From Candidatus Saccharimonadales bacterium (GTDB taxonomy: Bacteria; Patescibacteriota; Saccharimonadia; Saccharimonadales; JAXHNE01): DNA of 64,000 nt. Location: assembly GCA_041600755.1 (NCBI GenBank), contig JBFIJL010000001.1:56798-120797 (forward strand), given 5' to 3'. The notes below the pieces were generated by a model. That model did not search any database. It had not been told where the DNA came from and worked only from the letters and a program-made list of their open reading frames with translations. Below are positions 1 to 47,813 of the stretch, piece by piece. Numbering within the stretch: the first letter of the stretch is position 1; each line of letters opens with the position of its first letter. Made by a program: the position numbers and the translations under genes.

Positions 1-12
1 TCAAATTCTTGG

Positions 13-69
13 CAAGAAAAAAGCCCTAGAATTATCTAAGGCTTTCATCATGGTGGAGCTGGCGGGCAC
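13..69 (-). repeat. Direct repeat: partial copy of the tmRNA 3' end (last 19 nt) plus 38 nt of downstream terminator; the 57 nt are identical to 185..241
   Basis: caagaaaaaagccctagaattatctaaggctttcatcatggtggagctggcgggcac occurs at 13-69 and 185-241. Revcomp of the end is GTGCCCGCCAGCTCCACCA, a tmRNA acceptor/CCA end. Copy 1 lacks the upstream T-stem partner, so it is a non-functional fragment. Confidence 0.8.
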
Positions 70-184
70 GAACACTTAATAAGCTGCTCGGCAACCTGGC
101 AAAAGCCAGGCTCGCAGGACAAGCAAGGAAAACTCAAATAGCCGCTGGCTATTTTCGCCCTCTCGGGCAGTGCCCAAACTTAAA

Positions 185-222
185 CAAGAAAAAAGCCCTA
201 GAATTATCTAAGGCTTTCATCA
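185..222 (-). terminator. Rho-independent terminator immediately 3' of tmRNA
   Basis: In RNA sense, directly after CCA: AAAGCCTTAGA-TAAT-TCTAGGGCTTTTTT (8-bp stem with one GU, 4-nt loop, T-run). Confidence 0.6.
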
Positions 223-602
223 TGGTGGAGCTGGCGGGCACCGCCCCCGCGTCCGTAAGTGTTTCAAGTAGTCTATCCTACAGGCTTAGATCATTTAATT
301 ACGATTGTTAGATGAAAAATAATCAAAAACTAACAAAAGTTCATCCAAAAGTCTTAGCAATTACTATGGATTCTCGTAACTGAGCAATCTGAAAAATAGC
401 GCTTTGCACAACTATCAGATATCGTCGGCAAAACGGCTTTTAACAATTAAGCAAAAGCTGGTGCGGCTACTGGCATGCGGAACATGCTAGCAACGCGCTG
501 TACAAAAGATGTTGCATCTAGTGATTTTTATCCTATAACGCGGGATTAGCGACCTGCTGATCTACCTGTAAACGAGCTAACGTCGAGCTTAAAGTCAGCC
601 CC
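223..602 (-). ncRNA. ssrA: tmRNA (SsrA), ~380 nt
   Basis: Revcomp 5' end is GGGGCTGACTTTAAGCTCGACG (E. coli starts GGGGCUGAUUCUGGAUUCGACG). The 3' end is ...GCGGGGGCGGTGCCCGCCAGCTCCACCA with a G3:U wobble in the acceptor stem (alanine identity). An internal tag-like ORF ends GCC GCA CCA GCT TTT GCT TAA (…AAPAFA*), stop at 447-449 on the minus strand. Confidence 0.85.
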
Positions 603-655
603 ATGTCAAAATTGCGCCATTTTACTGACGCAATTTTACTATACCACTTATGTAT

Positions 656-1432
656 TTAATTTGCAATGACTTCTTGTAGCCCAAACCACTGTTGTAGAGA
701 GAGTTCCTGGGGCCGTGCCGAAGGGTTTATGCCGGCCTTGTTTAGTAAAATTTTGACCTCATCTTTATCTAACTGCAAACCGGCGCTTAGTGAGTTCAAG
801 AGCGTTTTTCTACGATTACTAAATCCTGCCTTAACAATTCTAAAGAACTTCTTTTCGTCAATATCGCCAAATAATGGGTCTGTTCGGCGCTTTAATATAA
901 CTGTTTGTGAATCAACTTTTGGTGGCGGCGTAAAGAACTTTGCAGGCACCTCAATGCCGAGCTCACAATTCCAATAATATTGCGCACTAACGCTCAGCAT
1001 CGACATTTTGCCTGGAGCTGCACAGACACGCTGCGCAACTTCTTTTTGCACCAATAAAACTGCAATCTCGGGCGGATTACTAGACTCACTTATCGTACGA
1101 ATGAGCTTGCTCGTAAGATAGTAGGGGATGTTGGCAACAACCTTGTAGGGTGTGGAGACTTCAGAAAAGTTAAACTGCAAGATATCTTGTTGTACGGTCT
1201 TTACTGCTGGAAAGTTATGTTTCATGTCTATAGCCAGCTGCTCATCGAACTCAACAGCCGTAATGTGCGCGCCGGCGGCAATAAGCTCGCGAGTAAGTGT
1301 GCCAGGACCAGGACCAATCTCAACCACATTATCATCCTTGGCAACCATAGCCTCCGCCACTATCTGGGACAAAATAGTTTTGTCGGTAAGCCAGTGCTGA
1401 CCAAGTGATTTGTTGGTTACAGGCAAACTCAT
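656..1432 (-). CDS. rsmA: 16S rRNA (adenine1518/1519-N6)-dimethyltransferase RsmA/KsgA
   Basis: 258-aa ORF with N-term GQHWLTD (KsgA GQNFL-like), SAM-binding VVEIGPGPGTLT and NIPY motif. Confidence 0.85.
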   Translation of the reverse strand: MSLPVTNKSLGQHWLTDKTILSQIVAEAMVAKDDNVVEIGPGPGTLTRELIAAGAHITAVEFDEQLAIDMKHNFPAVKTVQQDILQFNFSEVSTPYKVVANIPYYLTSKLIRTISESSNPPEIAVLLVQKEVAQRVCAAPGKMSMLSVSAQYYWNCELGIEVPAKFFTPPPKVDSQTVILKRRTDPLFGDIDEKKFFRIVKAGFSNRRKTLLNSLSAGLQLDKDEVKILLNKAGINPSARPQELSLQQWFGLQEVIAN

Positions 1433-1848
1433 AAATCGAGCAAATCAAGTCCTATGGCTTCGTCATGACGTCGTGACAGCGATACATCGATCACATCAAG
1501 TTTAATTTCGCAGGTGCCGCTAACTGTTAACTCTTTGACATGCCCTCCAAGCCCGCACATTTTCTCGTCAGAAAAGCTGCCGTGAATATGTAGCTTTGGC
1601 TCGCCATCAACCCACGACACATTACCCTGCAAGCTAGTAATCTCTAGTAATTGATCAAAAATTTTCCAATCGTAATACTTCGTGTCTAACTGGTAAAACC
1701 CCAGCTCAACCGACAGAGATCCGCCCAAACCCGAAATCCATGCACCCTGAATATCTTCTTTTTTGACTAAGCTAGTAAGCGATGCAACGAGCTGCTCCCC
1801 CTTGCTAAGCCGAACTATGTATGACTGATCTTGTGCAATGTAATTCAT
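1429..1848 (-). CDS. PPC/DUF296 domain protein (AT-hook-associated predicted DNA-binding fold)
   Basis: 139 aa; the pattern YIVRLSKGEQLVASLTSL...GLGGSLSVELGF...LLEITSLQGNVS...LHIHGSF is typical of the PPC/DUF296 family. Confidence 0.5.
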   Translation of the reverse strand: MNYIAQDQSYIVRLSKGEQLVASLTSLVKKEDIQGAWISGLGGSLSVELGFYQLDTKYYDWKIFDQLLEITSLQGNVSWVDGEPKLHIHGSFSDEKMCGLGGHVKELTVSGTCEIKLDVIDVSLSRRHDEAIGLDLLDL

Positions 1849-1866
1849 ATCTCTTCTTAGTATAGC

Positions 1867-3114
1867 CTAGTACCAATGATTTACTTGCCAGAATGCATTT
1901 GCGCCACATGGACTGCCGTAGCGCCCAACCATGTAGCCTATTCCCCACCTAATTTGCACGGCTGGATCGGATTCCCAACCTGCTCCCATTTTACTACCTG
2001 GCAAGGCCTGAGGGATGCCGTACGCACCTGAGCTTCGATTGCGCGCCAGATGATTCCAGCCCGACTCCCGCTGGAAAATATCGTATATACAGCTGAATTG
2101 ATCGCCATACCCCATCTCTGCAGCAATCCTTTGCCCCAAAGCTACGTTTTCTGACGGATTACTAATCACAAATTTTGTACCTCGCACAACTACTTGCACT
2201 GCCGGTTCGCTCACAATAACTTCAGAAATTGCATTCCGCGCAACCTCGACGTCATTCTCTAGAACGATCTCATAAGTCACAACCTTCTCACCTGCTCGAC
2301 CGGCAGTTTTAATTGATTCGATTCCTCTTTGTATATTTGCATCGTCGATGTACTCAATTTGCATCGGAATTTCTTCCTCGACAGTCTCTAGTCTAGTTCC
2401 CACGCGCGCAACCGACACCTTGGTTGATGTTTGTAGTTTTGTGCCCAAAGCTGGCTCCAGCGTGTCATCTGGATTTATCTGTATCCCTTTTTCCTCCAAT
2501 AACTCATCGACTGTTGTCGCGTGAGTCCGAATTTGCACCAACTTGCCGTAAAGATTAAGCGAAACAAGGGTGGCACGATCAATAACAATCCGCTCCTCAA
2601 CTCCGCCAGATTTTATAACTTCCGCAGGCGTTTGCTCGGTTAGCGGCTGTCTCTCGACGATATCCTCTGGAAAGACCTCTACGCCAGCAGCTTTGGCAAC
2701 TGCCCGTGGAGAAGGCTCGGCGGTAAGCGTAACTGTACGGCTGCCCGTTTCATCTTCTACTAGAACAGGACGGGCTTTGTATACATTGATCTGGAAGTTA
2801 TTGTCTGTAATCTCGGCATCCAATGCGGGTTCAACTATATCGGCGCTTTCAACTTTAATTTCCAGCCGATTTAGCAGATCTGCCACGTCAACCGCCCTGG
2901 TTGGTACGACTCGCGACCTACCGTCAACAAAAAGTCGCACGACGCGTGTATCCTGCGCACCCTCAGTGCTTCCACCAAGTAACACCAATCCCATAAGTGT
3001 CACAAAAAATAACACCACAAAAACACTCACCGGAACCACGAATGGATGACGGCTCAGCAACTTCAGCTTGCGCTGCGTCTTCTTAGAGCGTAATTTTTTG
3101 AGTGCTTTCTTCAT
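1867..3114 (-). CDS. Membrane-anchored cell-wall protein with repeated DUF348-like segments, a G5 domain and a C-terminal lysozyme/transglycosylase-like domain (YabE/RpfB-like architecture)
   Basis: N-terminal TM helix after the KK-rich start (likely real start MKKALKK). G5-like stretch ...EKVVTYEIV...VVVRGTK. C-terminal IFQRESGWN...SSGAYGIPQALPGSKM...WGIGYMVGRYGSP resembles muralytic transglycosylase domains. Confidence 0.55.
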   Translation of the reverse strand: MKKALKKLRSKKTQRKLKLLSRHPFVVPVSVFVVLFFVTLMGLVLLGGSTEGAQDTRVVRLFVDGRSRVVPTRAVDVADLLNRLEIKVESADIVEPALDAEITDNNFQINVYKARPVLVEDETGSRTVTLTAEPSPRAVAKAAGVEVFPEDIVERQPLTEQTPAEVIKSGGVEERIVIDRATLVSLNLYGKLVQIRTHATTVDELLEEKGIQINPDDTLEPALGTKLQTSTKVSVARVGTRLETVEEEIPMQIEYIDDANIQRGIESIKTAGRAGEKVVTYEIVLENDVEVARNAISEVIVSEPAVQVVVRGTKFVISNPSENVALGQRIAAEMGYGDQFSCIYDIFQRESGWNHLARNRSSGAYGIPQALPGSKMGAGWESDPAVQIRWGIGYMVGRYGSPCGANAFWQVNHWY

Positions 3115-3198
3115 AAAATAGCCACTAGAGTAAAAACAATAACAACAAAATCTAGCAAGCACAAGTATACCAGATTTTAGGCCAATTCTCCAGTGGTG

Positions 3199-5421
3199 CT
3201 AAGTAATTTTTTCCAGTGGTGCAAACTGGATATTGAGCGTCTTATTACCTTTGGATTTGAAATAAATAGTCGCTGTATCGCCATCCATCGATATGATCTT
3301 GCCAATACCAAATAGCTGGTGTTTCACGGTGTCGCCTTCATCAAGGGTTGGGTACTCTTGGCTTTCGTCATAGCTTGGCATGTCGTCAACAAACTGCGGT
3401 GGACGGGGCGGCTTGGGCGCCTCGGTTGGTTTAGTATACCCAGACTGCTGCCTGTCAGCGAACGACTTGAAACTTCCACCAGACAATCCAGCCGCTCGTT
3501 CTGAATCGAGCAATGAACTGTCAATTTCACTCATAAACCTACTAGGTGGATTATGTTGCACTCCTCCGTATAACATTCTGCTCACGGCATGCATCATATA
3601 CAATTCTGATTTTGCACGAGTCATACCCACGTAACACAACCGACGCTCTTCTTCCATTTCTGACTGATCGTATAATGCCCTGGAATGTGGGAATAGCGAC
3701 TCCTCCATGCCCATCATGAACACCACCGGAAACTCCAGACCTTTTGCAGCATGGAGAGTCATAAGCGTAACTGCATTACTATTTTCATCAAAGCTATCCA
3801 GGTCGCTTACGAGCGCAATTTCCTCTAAGAATCCATCAAGTCCTACATCTTGGTATTGTTGTGCTACGCTCAAAAGCTCTTGTACGTTTTCTTTACGCGA
3901 TTCGCCCTGAGCTGAGCCGTCATCTATGAACGCCAAGTAGTCCAAACGCTTCACGAGAGCCTCCAGTAGCTCCGGAAGAGGTCGGTCATTCATGACTTCT
4001 CTGAAGCTGATCAGTAGGTCTGCTATGTCTCTGAAGCCCTTGATGGCTTTTGGTGTTAGTTTCATTGAGTCTACGTCAGCCAGTGCCTGAATTAGGGTAA
4101 CCCCACTCGCATTCATGTAATCATTAAATACTTGCAGCGATTTTGCACCAATGCCTCTCGTCGGTGTATTTACAATCCGCTGAAAACTCACCCGATCTTC
4201 GGGCTGATACAGCAAACGCAAGTACGCCATTATGTCCTTGATCTCCTTGCGATCATAAAATCTAACACCGCCAACAACACGATATGGCACTCCATAGCGT
4301 ACGAAAGCTTCTTCGATGGACCGACTCTGTGCATTCGTTCGGTAAAGAACTGCAAAATCCTTGAACTGCCGGAGTCCATGTTGCAGTGCAGTTTGTACTC
4401 GCGTCACAACGAGCTCTGCCTCTGCGCGCTCATTAAAAGCCTCGATAACCTTAACTGGCTGACCTTTAGCACCATCTGTCCATAGCTGTTTTTTGGAACG
4501 CTGCTCATTCTTGGTAATCACCGCGTGGGCGGCATCCAGAATTGCTTTGGTGCTGCGATAGTTTTGTTCCAGCTTGATTACAGACACGCCTGGATGATCA
4601 TTTTCAAAATTTAGAATATTGCGGAAATCTGCACCACGCCAAGAATAAATACTCTGCCAATCATCGCCAACAACAGCTATATTGTTTGCCGAGCTTGTGA
4701 GCAGTCGCACCAGCTTATACTGCGCAGCATTGGTGTCCTGATACTCATCAATCATCACGTATTTGAATTGCTTTTGCCACTTTGCGCGGATTTCTTCGTG
4801 GTACTCCATGAGATGCACTGTCTTAGAAATCAAGTCGTCAAAATCAAGTGCTCCGTTATCCTTAAGCATCTTTTCGTACAAGGGGTAGACTTTTGCGGCA
4901 GCGACTTGAGTTGGACTTTTAGTCGAGCCGGCAAATTTATCAGGTCCAATCAGGTCATTCTTGGCGCTACTAATAACATGGGATAGGCCACGGGCTGGAA
5001 AAGCTTTCTCGTCAAGCGACAAACGCTTACTGACTTGCTTAATGGCTGACTGTCGATCAGATTCATCAAAGATTACAAAATTTTTAGGCACACCAACGTG
5101 ATCGCCGTCTTGGCGAAGTAACCGCACACAAATACTGTGAAAGGTCCCCATATACGGCATAAAACTTCGGTTATCCGGGTTTTGTCCCAGTAGCTCTGCA
5201 ACGCGAGTTCGCATTTCACCCGCCGCCTTGTTCGTGAACGTCACCGACAATATGTTATATGGTGTAGCCTTTTTGGTATCGATAAGATAGGCAATGCGAT
5301 GAGTAAGGGTTTTTGTCTTGCCAGATCCGGCGCCGGCCTGAATCAGTAATGGACCTTCGGTCGTCTCGACCGCACGTCGCTGTTCATCATTTAATCCTGT
5401 AAGTAAGTCATTTTGCATGCT
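3199..5421 (-). CDS. uvrD: ATP-dependent DNA helicase UvrD/PcrA family
   Basis: LNDEQRRAVETTEGPLLIQAGAGSGKTKTLTHRIAYLI (motif I) and DEYQDTN (motif II). ~740 aa with a C-terminal extension (…GIGKIISMDGDTATIYFKSKG). Confidence 0.9.
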   Translation of the reverse strand, partial: SMQNDLLTGLNDEQRRAVETTEGPLLIQAGAGSGKTKTLTHRIAYLIDTKKATPYNILSVTFTNKAAGEMRTRVAELLGQNPDNRSFMPYMGTFHSICVRLLRQDGDHVGVPKNFVIFDESDRQSAIKQVSKRLSLDEKAFPARGLSHVISSAKNDLIGPDKFAGSTKSPTQVAAAKVYPLYEKMLKDNGALDFDDLISKTVHLMEYHEEIRAKWQKQFKYVMIDEYQDTNAAQYKLVRLLTSSANNIAVVGDDWQSIYSWRGADFRNILNFENDHPGVSVIKLEQNYRSTKAILDAAHAVITKNEQRSKKQLWTDGAKGQPVKVIEAFNERAEAELVVTRVQTALQHGLRQFKDFAVLYRTNAQSRSIEEAFVRYGVPYRVVGGVRFYDRKEIKDIMAYLRLLYQPEDRVSFQRIVNTPTRGIGAKSLQVFNDYMNASGVTLIQALADVDSMKLTPKAIKGFRDIADLLISFREVMNDRPLPELLEALVKRLDYLAFIDDGSAQGESRKENVQELLSVAQQYQDVGLDGFLEEIALVSDLDSFDENSNAVTLMTLHAAKGLEFPVVFMMGMEESLFPHSRALYDQSEMEEERRLCYVGMTRAKSELYMMHAVSRMLYGGVQHNPPSRFMSEIDSSLLDSERAAGLSGGSFKSFADRQQSGYTKPTEAPKPPRPPQFVDDMPSYDESQEYPTLDEGDTVKHQLFGIGKIISMDGDTATIYFKSKGNKTLNIQFAPLEKIT

Positions 5422-42786: not shown

Positions 42787-42803
42787 TTGGTCGGGGTGAG
42801 AGG
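42787..42803 (-). repeat. Partial direct copy (17 nt) of the tRNA-Pro 3' end (outer copy)
   Basis: ttggtcggggtgagagg is identical to 47667-47683 (the same sequence at the tRNA-Pro 3' end). Confidence 0.7.
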
Positions 42804-42950
42804 GATCGCTAGAGTACTCACACTTCAGCTTCCCTGCGCTCGAGGCCAAGCAAGGAAAACTCAATATGCCACAGGCATATTTCGCCTGTCGGTTCGAGTC
42901 CCTAAACTCAAAGCAAATAAAAATACACAGACATATGCCTGTGTATTTTT
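42804..42950 (-). repeat. Ancestral tRNA-Pro downstream segment, now displaced; its internal ~50 nt are homologous to tmRNA downstream segment 70-184
   Basis: ctcgaggccaagcaaggaaaactcaatatgccacaggcatatttcgcc matches ctcgcaggacaagcaaggaaaactcaaatagccgctggctattttcgcc at 112-160. Palindromic terminator acacagacatatgcctgtgt + T-run abuts the 10-nt tRNA-end copy at 42951-42960. Confidence 0.5.
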
Positions 42951-43252
42951 ATTGGTCGGGTCAGAACGACACTCAGCGAACCTACCTACAAGCCAGCCTT
43001 TATGGGATTTTGCGAAACCATCAACAATTTAGGGATAAGGTCGAGAAGCTACAACGCATTGTCGATAACGCCGTAAAGCCAGAGGGCTTGGAGCTTATCA
43101 AGTTCGTGTAGCGTATAATGTAGATAATATGAGCGACGCCGACGAAACCAAAGAAAACGCAATGCTTCAAGAAAGTGAAGTTGTAGAGTTGCCACCGCAA
43201 CAATCAGCGACCGATACGAGCAACTGGGACAATAAAGTCTTTACTGACCCAA

Positions 43253-44530
43253 GTGGTGAAAAGTATATCCGAACTCTACCTAACGAAGATAGCGAATAGT
43301 CATAACGGGTACAATTTTATGCCAACTATTGACCAGCAGATTGCACAAGAAGAAGCACGAATAAAAAGTACTCTTGGAAACTTCTCTTCAATTATTACCA
43401 ACGCCCAAAAATCTACTAAAGAGAGCCATAATTACAAAATCCTTACAATTCAATTTGATGAGTGTAGGCTTGTTGCCTACGTTCTTGAACACTTGCTGAA
43501 TTGCAAAACAGCTTGGCTTCCTATAGAGAAAGTTCATTGGTGGTCTAGCTTCTCGTACGACGGAGTATACTGTTCAATTGCTCATCAAAAGTTCGGATTT
43601 AATTTGTATATCTCTGGTGGACTAAATAAAAACGATGCTGACAAGTTAGCTAAAAAGTTAATAGCTGAGTTAGAGACAATCGTTGCAACGCTAAGCAAAG
43701 TTACGACGCTCTATGCGAAAAAAGCCGTGAAGGTTGGTAATATCATCCTTCACAATAAGATGCAAAGCCTTGAGGATAGGTACGTATATTATCGTGATGC
43801 TAGCTTTGTTGAGCTTGATACCAAAGCAGAACTTGACAGTATAATGGGCGAAAATGATGGAGAAGTCGTTGAGTTGGGTGTACACGACGAAAAAGACGAC
43901 AAGGACTTAGACAAGAAAGTAGTCGAGACTATGGAGCGTCTTGCTGTATATAGGCGAAAATCGAGTGTTCATCTCTATAATCAGGAGGTTGCAATCATAT
44001 ACTTCTTGAGCTTGGTTGAGCACATATGCCTACTTCTTTATGCGTTTAATCACGATGGAGGCAGTGTAGTTGATTTAGCGATGAAGGGTTGGGGCGAAAA
44101 GTTTGAAAAGGTTATTGGTACTGCGGATAAAGATATTGAAGAGGGGTATCTGTATCTAAGGAAAGTCGCCCTATATAAACGAAACCCTATCACTCACGGC
44201 TTCTTAACTCCTAAGATGACCGAAGCGAGCTTCTACTTTAAGCCAGCACGGCAACGGACGCCAATAAACTTATTTGATGGAGAGCTTTTGGGTGAATATG
44301 GCTACGAGGTAGATTTAGCAAAACTTGACAAGCTACTGGCAGATATAAGGAAAAGTCCGAAGTTTCACAACGCTATGCGCTATATAGGAAATAGTGAGTT
44401 TGATATTAGCTATGATACTGGCAGTATGGCAGAGTTTGAATTAGTGAATAAGATGACCGAAGGCGATTTAGTGGAATACCTCGATGCAGTATCGTGGAGA
44501 TATAATAACGCCGCTAATATGGACTGGTAA
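43253..44530 (+). CDS. Hypothetical island cargo protein (425 aa)
   Basis: Long clean ORF, AT-rich, no recognisable catalytic motif; preceded by ~290 bp non-coding. Confidence 0.5.
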   Translation: MVKSISELYLTKIANSHNGYNFMPTIDQQIAQEEARIKSTLGNFSSIITNAQKSTKESHNYKILTIQFDECRLVAYVLEHLLNCKTAWLPIEKVHWWSSFSYDGVYCSIAHQKFGFNLYISGGLNKNDADKLAKKLIAELETIVATLSKVTTLYAKKAVKVGNIILHNKMQSLEDRYVYYRDASFVELDTKAELDSIMGENDGEVVELGVHDEKDDKDLDKKVVETMERLAVYRRKSSVHLYNQEVAIIYFLSLVEHICLLLYAFNHDGGSVVDLAMKGWGEKFEKVIGTADKDIEEGYLYLRKVALYKRNPITHGFLTPKMTEASFYFKPARQRTPINLFDGELLGEYGYEVDLAKLDKLLADIRKSPKFHNAMRYIGNSEFDISYDTGSMAEFELVNKMTEGDLVEYLDAVSWRYNNAANMDW

Positions 44531-44739
44531 GCCCCCACCCATCGAACACGTCATTTTAGAAAAGCTTGTAAACGCACTTGTAGGCTAAAAATACGTCAGT
44601 GACAAAAAATGGTTTGTTTTGCCGTTTTACCCAACAATTATGAACAGAGGTCGGAGTTAAAAAATCGCCCAACAAACCAGAAGAACAGTAACAGGGGTGG
44701 ACTGTTGGCTACTTACAAAATCTGTTGGGAATAAAAGAT

Positions 44740-45402
44740 TTAGTTCTTGATGAGATGCTTCGTAAATCCGTTTTCCACAAGAACATTAAAGGACTGCCAA
44801 ACACTCTCTGGAATATCCTGTTCAATCTGAAAGCCTAGTGATGGAAAGACTTTAATACGCTGTAAGTCACCAACCATAATGTTTATAAACTGTTCTTTAG
44901 AGCTACTATCGGTTAACATATCGTCATAGCTGAGAGCAGGAGACGTGACGATAACCTCAGTGGAGCTATCTGACCATTGCTTCTTAAATGTTGCATATGC
45001 CCTACGCTCCATATAGGGTTTTGTAACGATAATTAAAGACTTGGGCTGTACGCTTTTACTGTCGAGTAGTTCTTGTGTAAATCGAATATTTTCACCTGTG
45101 TTTGTAGACTTTTCCTCGATAAGGATTTTATCTTCAGACACTCCATTGCCGATAGCAATATCCCTAAATAATTCTGCCTCAGTCGTATTGTTGCTGTGCT
45201 GGGTTATCTTGCCGTAACCACCCGAAAATATAAGCAAATCACTATAACCATCAAGAAAGAGTTGGCTCGCTCGCTCGGCAACCCTGCTTTCTGATGAACC
45301 TAGCCCTAATATTACATCGGCTTTCTCAATCGGCATATTGAGTAGCATATAGTCGAATACGACTTTTGCGTGCTCGTCTACGTTCATTAAATCTCTTTCC
45401 AA
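44740..45402 (-). CDS. DUF218 (YdcF/ElyC-like) domain protein
   Basis: ...VILGLGSSESRVAERASQLFLDGYSDLLIFSGGYG...EKSTNTGENIRFTQELL matches the DUF218 core. Confidence 0.55.
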   Translation of the reverse strand: MERDLMNVDEHAKVVFDYMLLNMPIEKADVILGLGSSESRVAERASQLFLDGYSDLLIFSGGYGKITQHSNNTTEAELFRDIAIGNGVSEDKILIEEKSTNTGENIRFTQELLDSKSVQPKSLIIVTKPYMERRAYATFKKQWSDSSTEVIVTSPALSYDDMLTDSSSKEQFINIMVGDLQRIKVFPSLGFQIEQDIPESVWQSFNVLVENGFTKHLIKN

Positions 45403-45803
45403 AAGCAGGTGTAATCACTGCCCTTAGTAAAGCCCAATTGGTTATATCGACTATCTAAGTCGGCATTTCCTACTGGCGTGTAGACTAGCACTTGAGAGTG
45501 ACCACGACCCCTTAGAACCTCTACGGCTTTATCGTGGAGAGCTTTGGTTACGTCTCCGTTTGCTAGATGTACAGCAAAACGAAATAGCCAAGCAACACGA
45601 CCATCGTCGACAAGAGATACAGTGCCCACAATCTTTTCGTCTTCAACAGCAACAAGGATTGCATCGGTGTCTACTTCAATCTTTTTTCTAAGTCTGTCGC
45701 TAGCGTCACGCGCTTCGTCGAACTGACCACCAAGCGTATCGCTATCTAAGTAGAGAGCTTTGAGTTGCTCGTAATCAGATGGCTCGTAACTCCTTATAAT
45801 CAT
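45387..45803 (-). CDS. GNAT family acetyltransferase
   Basis: 138 aa, ...ILVAVEDEKIVGTVSLV...RGRGHSQVL... acetyl-CoA-binding-like motif; 16-nt overlap with the DUF218 gene. Confidence 0.5.
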   Translation of the reverse strand: MIIRSYEPSDYEQLKALYLDSDTLGGQFDEARDASDRLRKKIEVDTDAILVAVEDEKIVGTVSLVDDGRVAWLFRFAVHLANGDVTKALHDKAVEVLRGRGHSQVLVYTPVGNADLDSRYNQLGFTKGSDYTCFWKEI

Positions 45804-45850
45804 AGTTTTATTATATACCAGAAAACCGTTGAACCTATTTACAAGCTATA

Positions 45851-47679
45851 ATGATGGACAGTATGGCTACAGGAGATAAGAAAACCAGAACACGCAAGAA
45901 GCAAGTGCTTGTACCGCTTAGTGATAAGCAGTTGAAGCAAGCCGAGAGTGTAGTAGCCGAAAGCCTAAAAGATAACCCTGAACTGTTCAACCTGCCAGAG
46001 AGTAGATACACGGTTGAGGGTCTCGTAGACTTCTACGTGCAGTCGATAGCGGGTAGCAGAAAGATACTACCTAAAGAGAAACGACGCTATGTAGTCTACT
46101 TACGTAAATCCACTGATGACGAACGTAAACAAGTGAGGTCGATTGACGACCAGAGAAAAGAGTGCCTAGATTTAGCCAAGAGGCTTGATATTAAAGTACG
46201 ACCTGAGGATATTTTCGAGGAAAGACAGTCGGCAAAAATCTCTGGCAAACGTGACATATTCAATGACATTATGGAGGGTTTTGAGAGAGGTAAATATCAC
46301 GGTTAAATCTCGTGGTCACCTGACCGATTGTCACGCAATATGTTAGGGGTGGCCAGATTATCGAGCACGTAGATTACGAGAAGATACAGGATTTACTATT
46401 CTGCACTTACGCTTTCGACAACACACTAAACGGCAAAATGATGCTTGGTATTTTGTTTGCTACGTCAAAGCAATATAGCGACAAACTAGCGGTTGATGTG
46501 GCTCGTGGCATTACAGGTGCTATCCACGAGGGCAAGTATGTTGGTCTAGTCAAAAAGGGCTACTATGCTGACACTGACAATGGACGGTTTATGCCAGACG
46601 GCGTACATTGGCAGTTATTACGCCAAGCCGTTGTTATGCGACTAAAAGACCGCAAGACCAATCAAGAGATAGCAGACTTCTTAAACGCCTCAAACTTTAG
46701 CTTTCGCAAAAGCCAAGATGACCCCTACAAAAAAGCAAAAATGGACAAAAAGACAGTTGCAACAATGTTTGCCGACCCCTTTTACACGGGTGCTTACAAG
46801 TATGGCGATAACATAGCCAACCTAAAAGACACCTATAACTTTTTGCCCCTGATGACACCCGACGAGTTTATAGCGTTAAGCAAGAATATGTCGGATAGTT
46901 TCAATAAAGAGTTTGTTGGTCGCAGTAACGTTGCTAAACGGCTAGATTTCGGATTGCTTCGAGAAAAGGTTATTTGCGACTATTGCGATAAACCGATGGG
47001 CTTCCAGAGGACAAAGATACCAAGAGGCAAAAACCAAGGTCGCTATATGATAAGTTTCTATTGCCGAGATAATGGTCAGGGCTGTCTACGTCATAATAAC
47101 GAAGAAGCTATAAAACAGTACGGAAAGAAGCTCAGCAAGAGTGTTAGGCTCAAAGATATAACGCCACACATCGCTTGGACGATACAGAACTGCACTAAAG
47201 ACAGCAAGAAAGCCTACGACTACTACATTGAACGTCTGAAAAGTGAGGTTGCCGTTAAACGTGAGACTGCTAAACGCAAGCTGGCTGATGCTAAAAAAGA
47301 AGTTGCTAAGCAAGAAGAGATGCTAGCCCAGTATCAGAACTTTCAAGTAAAGCACCCTGAAGATTATCAGAAGTACCACAAGAATAAGCTAGAGGAGCAT
47401 CAACAACTCCTTGATGTACATAGTGTAAGTGTCTCTAAACTAGAGAAAGAACTCGAAAAACTCAAACAAGATTTACCAACCCGCAAAGAGTTTGCTGAAC
47501 TCGTCCAATCGTATCTGTTAATACTACGTACAACCCGTGATTTGGTGGAAGAGGACGAAGTGTACAAAGAGATGGTGTTGAACCTGCGTGTTAGGGACGA
47601 CTCCGCCCCTGTTATAAAGCTAAATCCACCATACGATATGATGGTGGATTTTAGCGAAAATACTTCTTGGTCGGGGTGA
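45851..47679 (+). pseudogene. Large serine recombinase (integrase) disrupted by an in-frame TAA (46304-46306) and a frameshift (~46335-46365)
   Basis: N-terminal YVVYLRKSTDDERKQVRSIDDQ (catalytic Ser region); after the TAA the same frame continues ISWSPDRLSRN (resolvase DRLxR motif). A different frame then reads GGQIIEHVDYEKIQD...MMLGILFATSKQYSDKLAVDVARG, followed by the recombinase domain and Cys zinc ribbon (CDYCDKPMG...FYCRDNGQGC) and a coiled coil. Last codons TSWSG* are encoded by the tRNA-Pro 3' end. Confidence 0.6.
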
Positions 47680-47742
47680 GAGGACTCGAACCTCCGACCT
47701 CACGGTCCCAAACCGCGCGCGCTAGCCAACTGCGCCACACCC
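47668..47742 (-). tRNA. tRNA-Pro (anticodon TGG)
   Basis: Revcomp CGGGGTGTGGCGCAGTTGGCTAGCGCGCGCGGTTTGGGACCGTGAGGTCGGAGGTTCGAGTCCTCTCACCCCGACCA; anticodon loop TTTGGGA. Confidence 0.85.
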
Positions 47743-47813
47743 CGTTAGTCTAGTGGCTTTTGCCACTAGAAAACTTACAGTATTATAACAGAAATTATTG
47801 TACTGACCAGTGT

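Follow-up and report, generated by a model that had tools for sequence, protein, structure and literature searches.

An apparently undescribed folded element of about 100 bases behind tRNA and tmRNA genes of Saccharibacteria

We report a folded element of about 100 bases, termed E, which lies behind many tRNA and tmRNA genes of Saccharibacteria and is apparently undescribed; a full-text literature search that included the core sequence found no description of it. The best reading of positions 13-241 of the window (the whole stretch of 64,000 nucleotides that was analysed) is that they are one unit of this Saccharibacteria-specific family, whose members of about 100-115 nt adjoin tRNA and tmRNA genes at the 3' end. 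Genome and metagenome scans gave a total of 72 non-redundant copies of E in 77 loci, and E was found behind two of the eight tRNA and tmRNA genes of the window.

Results

The tmRNA gene and its repeated 3' end

The initial annotation placed a tmRNA gene at the start of the window, and a covariance model confirms it: Infernal gave a full-length match to RF00023 at 223-602 on the minus strand (model positions 1-374) that scored 64.2 bits, well over the gathering score of 47. The CCA of this ssrA gene lies at 223-225, and the tag reading frame at 447-515 encodes ATSFVQRVASMFRMPVAAPAFA, followed by a stop codon. ARAGORN made no tmRNA call at 223-602 despite the Infernal score well above threshold; it was also silent at most related ssrA loci and called only those of L200 and L201.

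The last 19 nt of ssrA (223-241) and the adjoining 38 nt, which contain the ssrA terminator (a terminator-like hairpin at 191-218, then a U-run), make up the proximal copy of a direct repeat (185-241, minus strand), which begins in the T-loop of the gene. The distal copy (13-69, minus strand) consists of a sense copy of the ssrA 3' end (51-69) and a copy of the terminator (13-50). As the initial annotation had read from the letters, the two copies are identical at 57 of 57 positions and enclose only 115 nt (70-184), a spacer without an ORF. The 18-nt tmRNA end occurs exactly twice within the window, against 0.01 occurrences expected from shuffles. Moreover, a Logan contig from an independent read set (SRR29257383), which is 100% identical to window 212-3673, stops 30 nt into the repeat, that is, at k-1 for a k=31 assembler. 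Because such a break is expected at a true repeat, this contig answers the concern, raised together with the original observation, that the assembly might be at fault, and the 57-nt repeat is genuine.

Two copies of the element in the window

The spacer is a copy of E (70-184, minus strand, about 115 nt; nhmmer 55.9 bits). Its 5' segment GGGCAC (170-175, minus strand) is antisense to the tmRNA T-arm and is able to pair with GUGCCC of either repeat copy, which forms helix P1. It is followed on the same strand by hairpin P2 (AAAUAGCC-AGC-GGCUAUUU, 136-154), where both-sided changes occur across 33 copies, by the conserved 18-nt strand UUGAGUUUUCCUUGCUUG (120-137), which served as the motif for the collection scans and from which variant E copies are one base off, and by the P3 region (85-119), with a base helix UGCUUG/CGAGCA and a distal hairpin CCUGGC-UUUU-GCCAGG at 95-110.

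The second copy is linked to tRNA-Pro (42809-42917, minus strand; nhmmer 58.5 bits) and has the same parts, namely an antisense T-arm (42891-42902), P2 (42864-42880) and the 18-mer (42847-42864). This second unit is closed by 21 nt (42788-42808, minus strand) that repeat the 3' end of tRNA-Pro(tgg) in sense orientation, with two mismatches in the T-loop part. By the canonical architecture of the units, 42918-42959 (minus strand) are presumed to hold the native tRNA-Pro terminator and the displaced last 9 nt of the gene, CCCGACCAA. The resemblance that had been noticed between the spacer and the segment beside the tRNA-Pro fragment is well founded: segments 70-184 and 42807-42917 have the exact 18-mer CAAGCAAGGAAAACTCAA in common, both score in the profile search, and both contain the P2 hairpin, with stems that differ by paired changes. 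A profile built from other E copies had no match in the window beyond these two.

The tRNA-Pro end had initially been regarded as displaced. Homologous E sequence adjoins it, and the fragment 42788-42808 does not mark the distal boundary of the 4.7-kb island, whose limits are set by TTGGTCGGG. The 4.7 kb between the tRNA-Pro end and the intact tRNA-Pro(tgg) gene (47668-47744, minus strand) are an insert separate from E. This insert in the tRNA-Pro(tgg) 3' end (42951-47674) carries the 9-bp repeat TTGGTCGGG at 42951-42959 and 47666-47674. Its large serine recombinase is split between a Resolvase ORF (PF00239, 45851-46306) and a Recombinase ORF (PF07508, 46438-47679) that runs into tRNA-Pro, and the insert otherwise carries genes for a GNAT and a DUF218 protein as well as an ORF of 425 aa without a Pfam match. 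With Resolvase and Recombinase at one end and a short junction repeat, it has the features of a large-serine-recombinase island. Since it has its own 9-bp boundary repeat and the surrounding sequence has the layout of an E unit, the island landed inside a pre-existing tRNA-Pro/E unit.

Size and distribution of the family

When one genome per species was scanned with the 18-mer, 72 loci were obtained; the profile search found the whole E in 35, and the remaining loci were chance matches of the 18-mer alone. The titles of the 35 loci name Saccharibacteria, Saccharimonadales/Saccharimonadia or 'Patescibacteria group', with the exception of L032 ('bacterium'), and all named source genomes of E copies are Saccharibacteria or Patescibacteria. 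A further 39 loci came from the metagenome scan. A tRNA or tmRNA gene lies on the same strand at most 110 nt upstream of 45 of the 72 copies, and an exact downstream repeat of at least 13 nt of the gene 3' end is present in 33 of these 45; several loci initially scored as having no gene upstream proved to be ssrA-linked. E is carried by 19 gene species (tmRNA, five Leu, three Pro, three Arg and two Val tRNAs, and one each for Met, Lys, Glu, Ser and Tyr). A complete end from T-loop to CCA is kept in 36 of 70 copies, some of them not beside the cognate tRNA, compared with 37 of 1400 control windows. The bodies of E group by genome, not by tRNA; for example, the Arg, Leu and Pro bodies of one MAG are 81-88% identical. 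Behind ssrA, E occurs in several body types whose ends fit the local gene.

Rfam 15 contains no family that matches E, as searched with the whole window at gathering scores, with positions 1-700 at E-values up to 10 and with six other loci at E-values up to 1; the only matches were weak, spurious and driven by terminators. Two scans of viral contigs returned chance matches only and no copy of E, and no autonomous relative was found. Pfam scans of the ORFs around 35 units (150 in all, at distances of up to 3 kb) showed no recurrent family of integrases, transposases, TnpB proteins or reverse transcriptases, and spot checks of 20 ORFs in or near units returned only small cargo, housekeeping genes and the unrelated serine recombinase island.

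Architecture of the unit

On the strand of the tRNA or tmRNA, a typical unit runs from the gene through its terminator, the antisense T-arm, the conserved junction GGCGAAAA, P2, UUGAGUUUUCCUUGCUUG, the variable P3 and a short A-rich linker to a sense copy of the gene end, which extends from T-loop position 55-58 (about 56) to CCA. In many loci, a second terminator-like hairpin follows this distal copy. The antisense segment comprises 6-15 nt, of which a median of 9.5 nt, and at most 15, match the upstream gene exactly. This match usually begins at position 52, four bases upstream of the start of the repeat at about 56, and the antisense segment therefore spans the junction. The segment varies with its target: it is GGACUCGAACC for tRNAs with the loop UUCGAGU, GACUUGAACC for those with UUCAAGU, and GGGCGGUACCCGCC or GGGCAC behind tmRNA genes. 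Helix P1 can form between this segment and the portion of the downstream copy that derives from the T-loop and T-stem; 11-14 nt (the acceptor strand plus NCCA) are then left as a free tail.

The usual repeat in the family has 19-23 nt, and only the 62-nt repeat of L154 (98% identical) is comparable to that of the window. The window repeat reaches 57 nt because the copy of the gene end continues through the terminator, as in L154. At other ssrA loci, the duplicated terminators are partly diverged (L120, L006, L010, L013 and L015), and elsewhere they are unrelated; from this gradient of terminator identity, the duplication often included the terminator at first.

Exceptions to this architecture also exist. 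E directly follows a non-cognate tRNA and has no antisense segment in L090, L116, L141 and L186, and in four loci E is divergent from tRNA-Glu, with a unit end that is similar, not equal, to the tRNA-Glu end. In a separate observation, E of L012 (6890-7140) is fused on its 5' side to the initial ~35 nt of a sequence that resembles tRNA-Glu; this locus also has a partial E-like core ~100 nt upstream of E and an intact tRNA-Glu downstream. The motif CTTATGCT(TAAA) stands directly after the distal CCA in four to five loci (L031, L032, L052, L184 and L058); counting all matches, CTTATGCT is found in 7 of 72 windows, where about 1.4 are expected.

A fold specific to one strand

The alignment of 33 copies with MAFFT and RNAalifold recovered P2, and P3 was not alignable. 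In P2, five pairs are changed on both sides and still paired, and its closing pair is G-U on the t(m)RNA strand in 11 of the 33 copies, which on the opposite strand would give a mismatch of A and C. In 29 of 36 copies, the fold of the t(m)RNA strand is the more stable, with a mean advantage of 4 kcal/mol. For E of the window, the minus strand folds with -47.2 kcal/mol (z -3.8) and the plus strand with -34.0 kcal/mol (z -1.5). The thermodynamic signal of P3 is modest across the family (mean z -1.2), and for that reason no claims are rested here on a general stability of P3, although P3 of the window does show a compensatory change from C-G to U-A relative to L046. Such a strand-specific fold excludes a purely double-stranded protein-binding site and fits RNA and single-stranded DNA alike.

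Age and turnover

A related genome, in which RsmA is 70% identical, has the orthologous RsmA-ssrA-E locus (L046). Between the window and L046, E is 83.5% identical, compared with 69% for the tmRNA gene, 58% for the proximal terminator and 15 of 19 nt for the distal tmRNA-end copy, and three base pairs of P2 and P3 are changed on both sides with pairing retained. The presence of a conserved orthologous E in L046 means that E predates the split of the lineages and has been conserved since. It follows that the perfect 57-nt identity in the window is younger than E itself, and it probably goes back to a recent gene conversion or re-insertion.

Turnover is visible at several loci. Tandem units of different body type stand behind one tRNA-Pro in L068 and L066, where the proximal repeat is perfect and the distal one truncated or decayed, and in L162 a second unit comes after the first behind tRNA-Tyr. 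In L066 and L108, the second unit lies ~3 kb downstream, past three ORFs, with 2.9 kb of cargo. The 3' tail is decayed and E intact in L046, L018 and L202. A 96%-identical block occurs twice on contig JBBQAZ010000002.1 (L008, 6380-6830, and L029, 1290-1760) and comprises the last 7 nt of tRNA-Met, the terminator, E and the initial 13 nt of the tRNA-end copy. The intact tRNA-Met adjoins one occurrence of the block on the left, and the full tRNA-end copy with a terminator adjoins the other on the right, so that the block boundaries split the repeat at complementary points (circularly permuted). These blocks look like reciprocal products, as expected of a circular form opened inside the repeat.

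Presence and absence of E were followed at ssrA loci of distant lineages that had been fetched through RsmA homologues, irrespective of E. The element is intact in L207 and L208, diverged with a decayed repeat in L202, reduced to a remnant cut after P2 in L210, and absent from L205. L200 (3232-3642, from the Saccharibacteria MAG GCA_034520885.1) instead carries a different 101-nt unit in four tandem copies behind ssrA, each of which ends in the tmRNA-like 19-mer GTGCCTGCCAGCTCCACCA, whose T-loop part is unlike the one in the resident tmRNA. The 82-nt spacer of L200 was not detected by the profile of the 5' half of E, although its last ~15 nt resemble the end of E. Regarding the gene neighbourhood of these loci, a 2',5' RNA ligase-like ORF is located just upstream of rsmA in L200, and a UvrD/PcrA helicase gene with an intein (PF14890, from a precomputed domain list) upstream of rsmA in L205 and L206.

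Discussion

Comparison with known systems

Tyrosine-integrase islands that occupy tRNA and tmRNA genes are classically recognised by a direct repeat of the gene 3' end that starts in the T-loop, and Williams reportedly classified in 2002 the integration in these genes, including the T-loop sublocation. E shares with such islands the tRNA and tmRNA targets, the repeat from the T-loop to the 3' end (57 nt here; 19-23 nt, starting at 55-58, in the family), the intact gene, the tandem units and the decay of distal repeats. However, it is ~100 nt instead of kilobases long and has no integrase in or near any unit: the 115 nt in the window hold no ORF, and no recombinase family is recurrent among the 150 neighbouring ORFs. 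Its covarying single-strand fold, its internal antisense T-arm and the similar bodies behind many tRNAs also set it apart from these islands.

Compared with the CIMEs of streptococcal ICEs and with MITE-like elements, E is likewise short, non-coding, flanked by a target repeat and multi-copy, and would need mobilisation in trans, but the parent autonomous element was not found. MITE-type target duplications have 2-10 bp. E, by contrast, is flanked by a repeat that duplicates 19-62 nt from the end of a functional gene, and the only inverted repeat is target sequence, the antisense T-arm set against the T-loop part of the flank; we therefore rejected an assignment to MITEs.

Parallels also exist with sites that recombine as folded single strands. 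Like integron attC, the attP of CTX phage and the ends of IS200/IS605 with their PATE derivatives, E has a strand-specific structure with G-T/G-U tolerance on one strand only and contains an internal complement of the target or cleavage site, and the enzyme need not be in the element. Unlike them, it has a P1 of only 6-15 bp and no shown link to IntI, Xer or a Y1 transposase. IS200/IS605 elements, moreover, have no flanking repeat, in which they differ from E. An IS200/IS605 derivative or an omega RNA was rejected, with no Rfam match and no TnpA/TnpB family recurrent among the 150 ORFs nearby.

Guide RNAs offer a third comparison. In TnpB omega RNA, the 3' guide is taken from the flank, and E resembles this RNA, the IS110 bridge RNA and the internal guide of group I introns in that a scaffold of ~100 nt is followed by ~20 nt equal to the adjacent target. 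As in guide RNAs, a second segment of E complements the target across the junction, and both target strands are thereby represented. E differs from guide-RNA systems in that no TnpB, IS110 or intron core was found with it, and in having no Rfam match and no conserved G before the 3' segment. A group I intron was rejected, with no Rfam intron match, a body of ~100 nt against at least ~200, a variable base before the 3' segment and an uninterrupted upstream gene; the group I introns described in tRNA genes of Patescibacteria are anticodon-loop introns and not relevant to E (PMC13011429).

Other identities were also discarded. Compared by eye, E does not fit a hammerhead core, a hairpin ribozyme, group II domain V, SRP RNA, RNase P CR-I, retron msr/msd or Y RNA. 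A tRNA-like gene on the opposite strand is contradicted by an unpaired T-stem, an inconstant ACCA spacing and G-U pairs that favour the t(m)RNA strand, and a phage or plasmid origin by the viral-contig scans with their chance matches only.

Origin and function of the units

Among the explanations considered, we favour the one, to which we give a little less than an even chance, that an E unit is a non-autonomous insertion cassette for tRNA and tmRNA 3' ends which folds as a single strand. The mechanism that we infer for such a cassette has several steps. First, a small molecule consisting of E and a copy of a t(m)RNA 3' end would recombine with the resident 3' end, with the left recombination boundary in the T-loop. 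Second, this would leave the gene intact and duplicate the gene end on the far side of E. Third, units would accumulate in tandem, some with cargo, and then decay or vanish. The enzyme would act in trans, and what the machinery recognises might be the antisense T-arm along with the conserved fold that the t(m)RNA strand adopts, either as RNA or as single-stranded DNA. The extent and architecture of the family and its single-strand fold speak for the cassette. The tandem units, the cargo, the variable states of ssrA loci, the terminator gradient, the genome-wise grouping of bodies and the permuted L008/L029 block are the dynamics expected of an inserting cassette. Of the names proposed initially, a miniature att-flanked element comes closest to the data. 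The family, the antisense T-arm segment and the family norm of 19-23 nt for the repeat, beside which the 57-nt identity is unusual, were not visible to the initial annotation.

Several points count against the cassette. No linked mobility enzyme, autonomous relative or viral copy was found; some units are not beside a cognate tRNA, or are divergent from an imperfectly matching tRNA-Glu; and a free circle of ~170 nt would be very small for double-strand recombination. In addition, the cassette gives no account of how the internal antisense T-arm comes to fit each new target. Finally, E is better conserved than the tmRNA gene and shows compensatory changes, which points to host selection rather than a passive insert.

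These last features suit the main rival explanation, which is compatible with the first and not exclusive of it, and which we regard as unlikely yet worth serious attention. Here, E and the t(m)RNA-end copy would form a host small-RNA gene family, with a scaffold, a 5' antisense T-arm and a 3' sense acceptor end with CCA. As part of this unlikely scenario, the RNA might serve as a decoy, a regulator or a guide for a protein encoded elsewhere and act on the cognate t(m)RNA or its gene, and the copies would be paralogues homogenised by gene conversion, not insertions. A host small RNA is favoured by the P2 covariation and the asymmetry towards the t(m)RNA strand, by the terminator-like hairpin behind the distal tRNA-end copy at many loci, by the excess of complete T-loop-to-CCA ends over control windows, and by the higher identity of orthologous E than of the tmRNA gene. 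A conserved scaffold with locus-specific ends is also the pattern of guide-RNA families, and no mobility gene lies nearby. On the other hand, in the typical arrangement the upstream terminator and E lie too close together for a promoter to fit between them. E is also dispensable, as several lineages have a truncated or decayed copy at ssrA or none at all, and in L046, L018 and L202 it is the 3' tail that decays next to an intact E. Different body types stand in tandem behind one tRNA, and few tRNAs per genome carry E, as illustrated by the two genes in the window.

Two further proposals fare considerably worse. In the first, which we consider improbable, E would be a small catalytic or protein-assisted RNA that uses the antisense T-arm as a guide, attacks the T-loop of the cognate transcript at about 55/56 and becomes joined to its 3' part, which extends from the T-loop to the point of termination. 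The joined molecule would then either recombine with the resident 3' end and so return to the genome, as a retro-type mobile RNA needing no integrase, or give fresh CCA-bearing 3' ends to damaged t(m)RNAs. Such an attack by RNA would account for the start of the repeat in the T-loop, its end past the terminator in the window and in L154, the guide that spans the junction, the lack of a recombinase and the folding of the t(m)RNA strand.

The second, more improbable still, was the main reading of the initial annotation: an integrase island once present in ssrA, all but 115 bp of which has been deleted or has decayed. The direct repeat does cover the ssrA 3' end from the T-loop, as such an island would leave it. 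However, random deletion would not give the same body of ~100 nt with the same boundaries in 72 copies at 19 genes, the body is conserved with compensatory changes, and integrase remnants were not found in or near units. With constant boundaries, conservation, as in the E of L046, and no recurrent integrase, the decayed island fails as an explanation, and the spacer is a complete member of the family rather than a remnant. An assembly artefact, in the form of a collapsed or duplicated contig end, would suit a window that starts only 12 nt before the distal repeat copy, but its probability is negligible, given the independent and identical contig break k-1 nt into the repeat, the identical architecture in dozens of unrelated assemblies, and an identical RsmA on record on a 283-kb contig, by which coordinate 1 of the window need not be a contig end.

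Conclusions

In conclusion, we found that the repeated ssrA end in the window belongs to a family of units built around E, for which the insertion cassette is our preferred, if tentative, explanation. For practical work, the copies of tRNA ends will mislead software for the detection of att sites and islands, which would take them for island boundaries, and at tRNA and tmRNA genes they cause breaks in assemblies from short reads. If the family is what it seems to be, E is a widespread, uncatalogued structured element in Saccharibacteria, whose tiny genomes have little spare DNA. It is tied to the T-arm and acceptor end, the sole part that tRNA and tmRNA have in common. If it is a cassette, it may be the smallest known at tRNA genes and has no integrase of its own, which would bear on the role of tRNA genes as insertion hot spots. 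If it is an RNA, it may represent a new class of small RNA with tRNA-specific modules.
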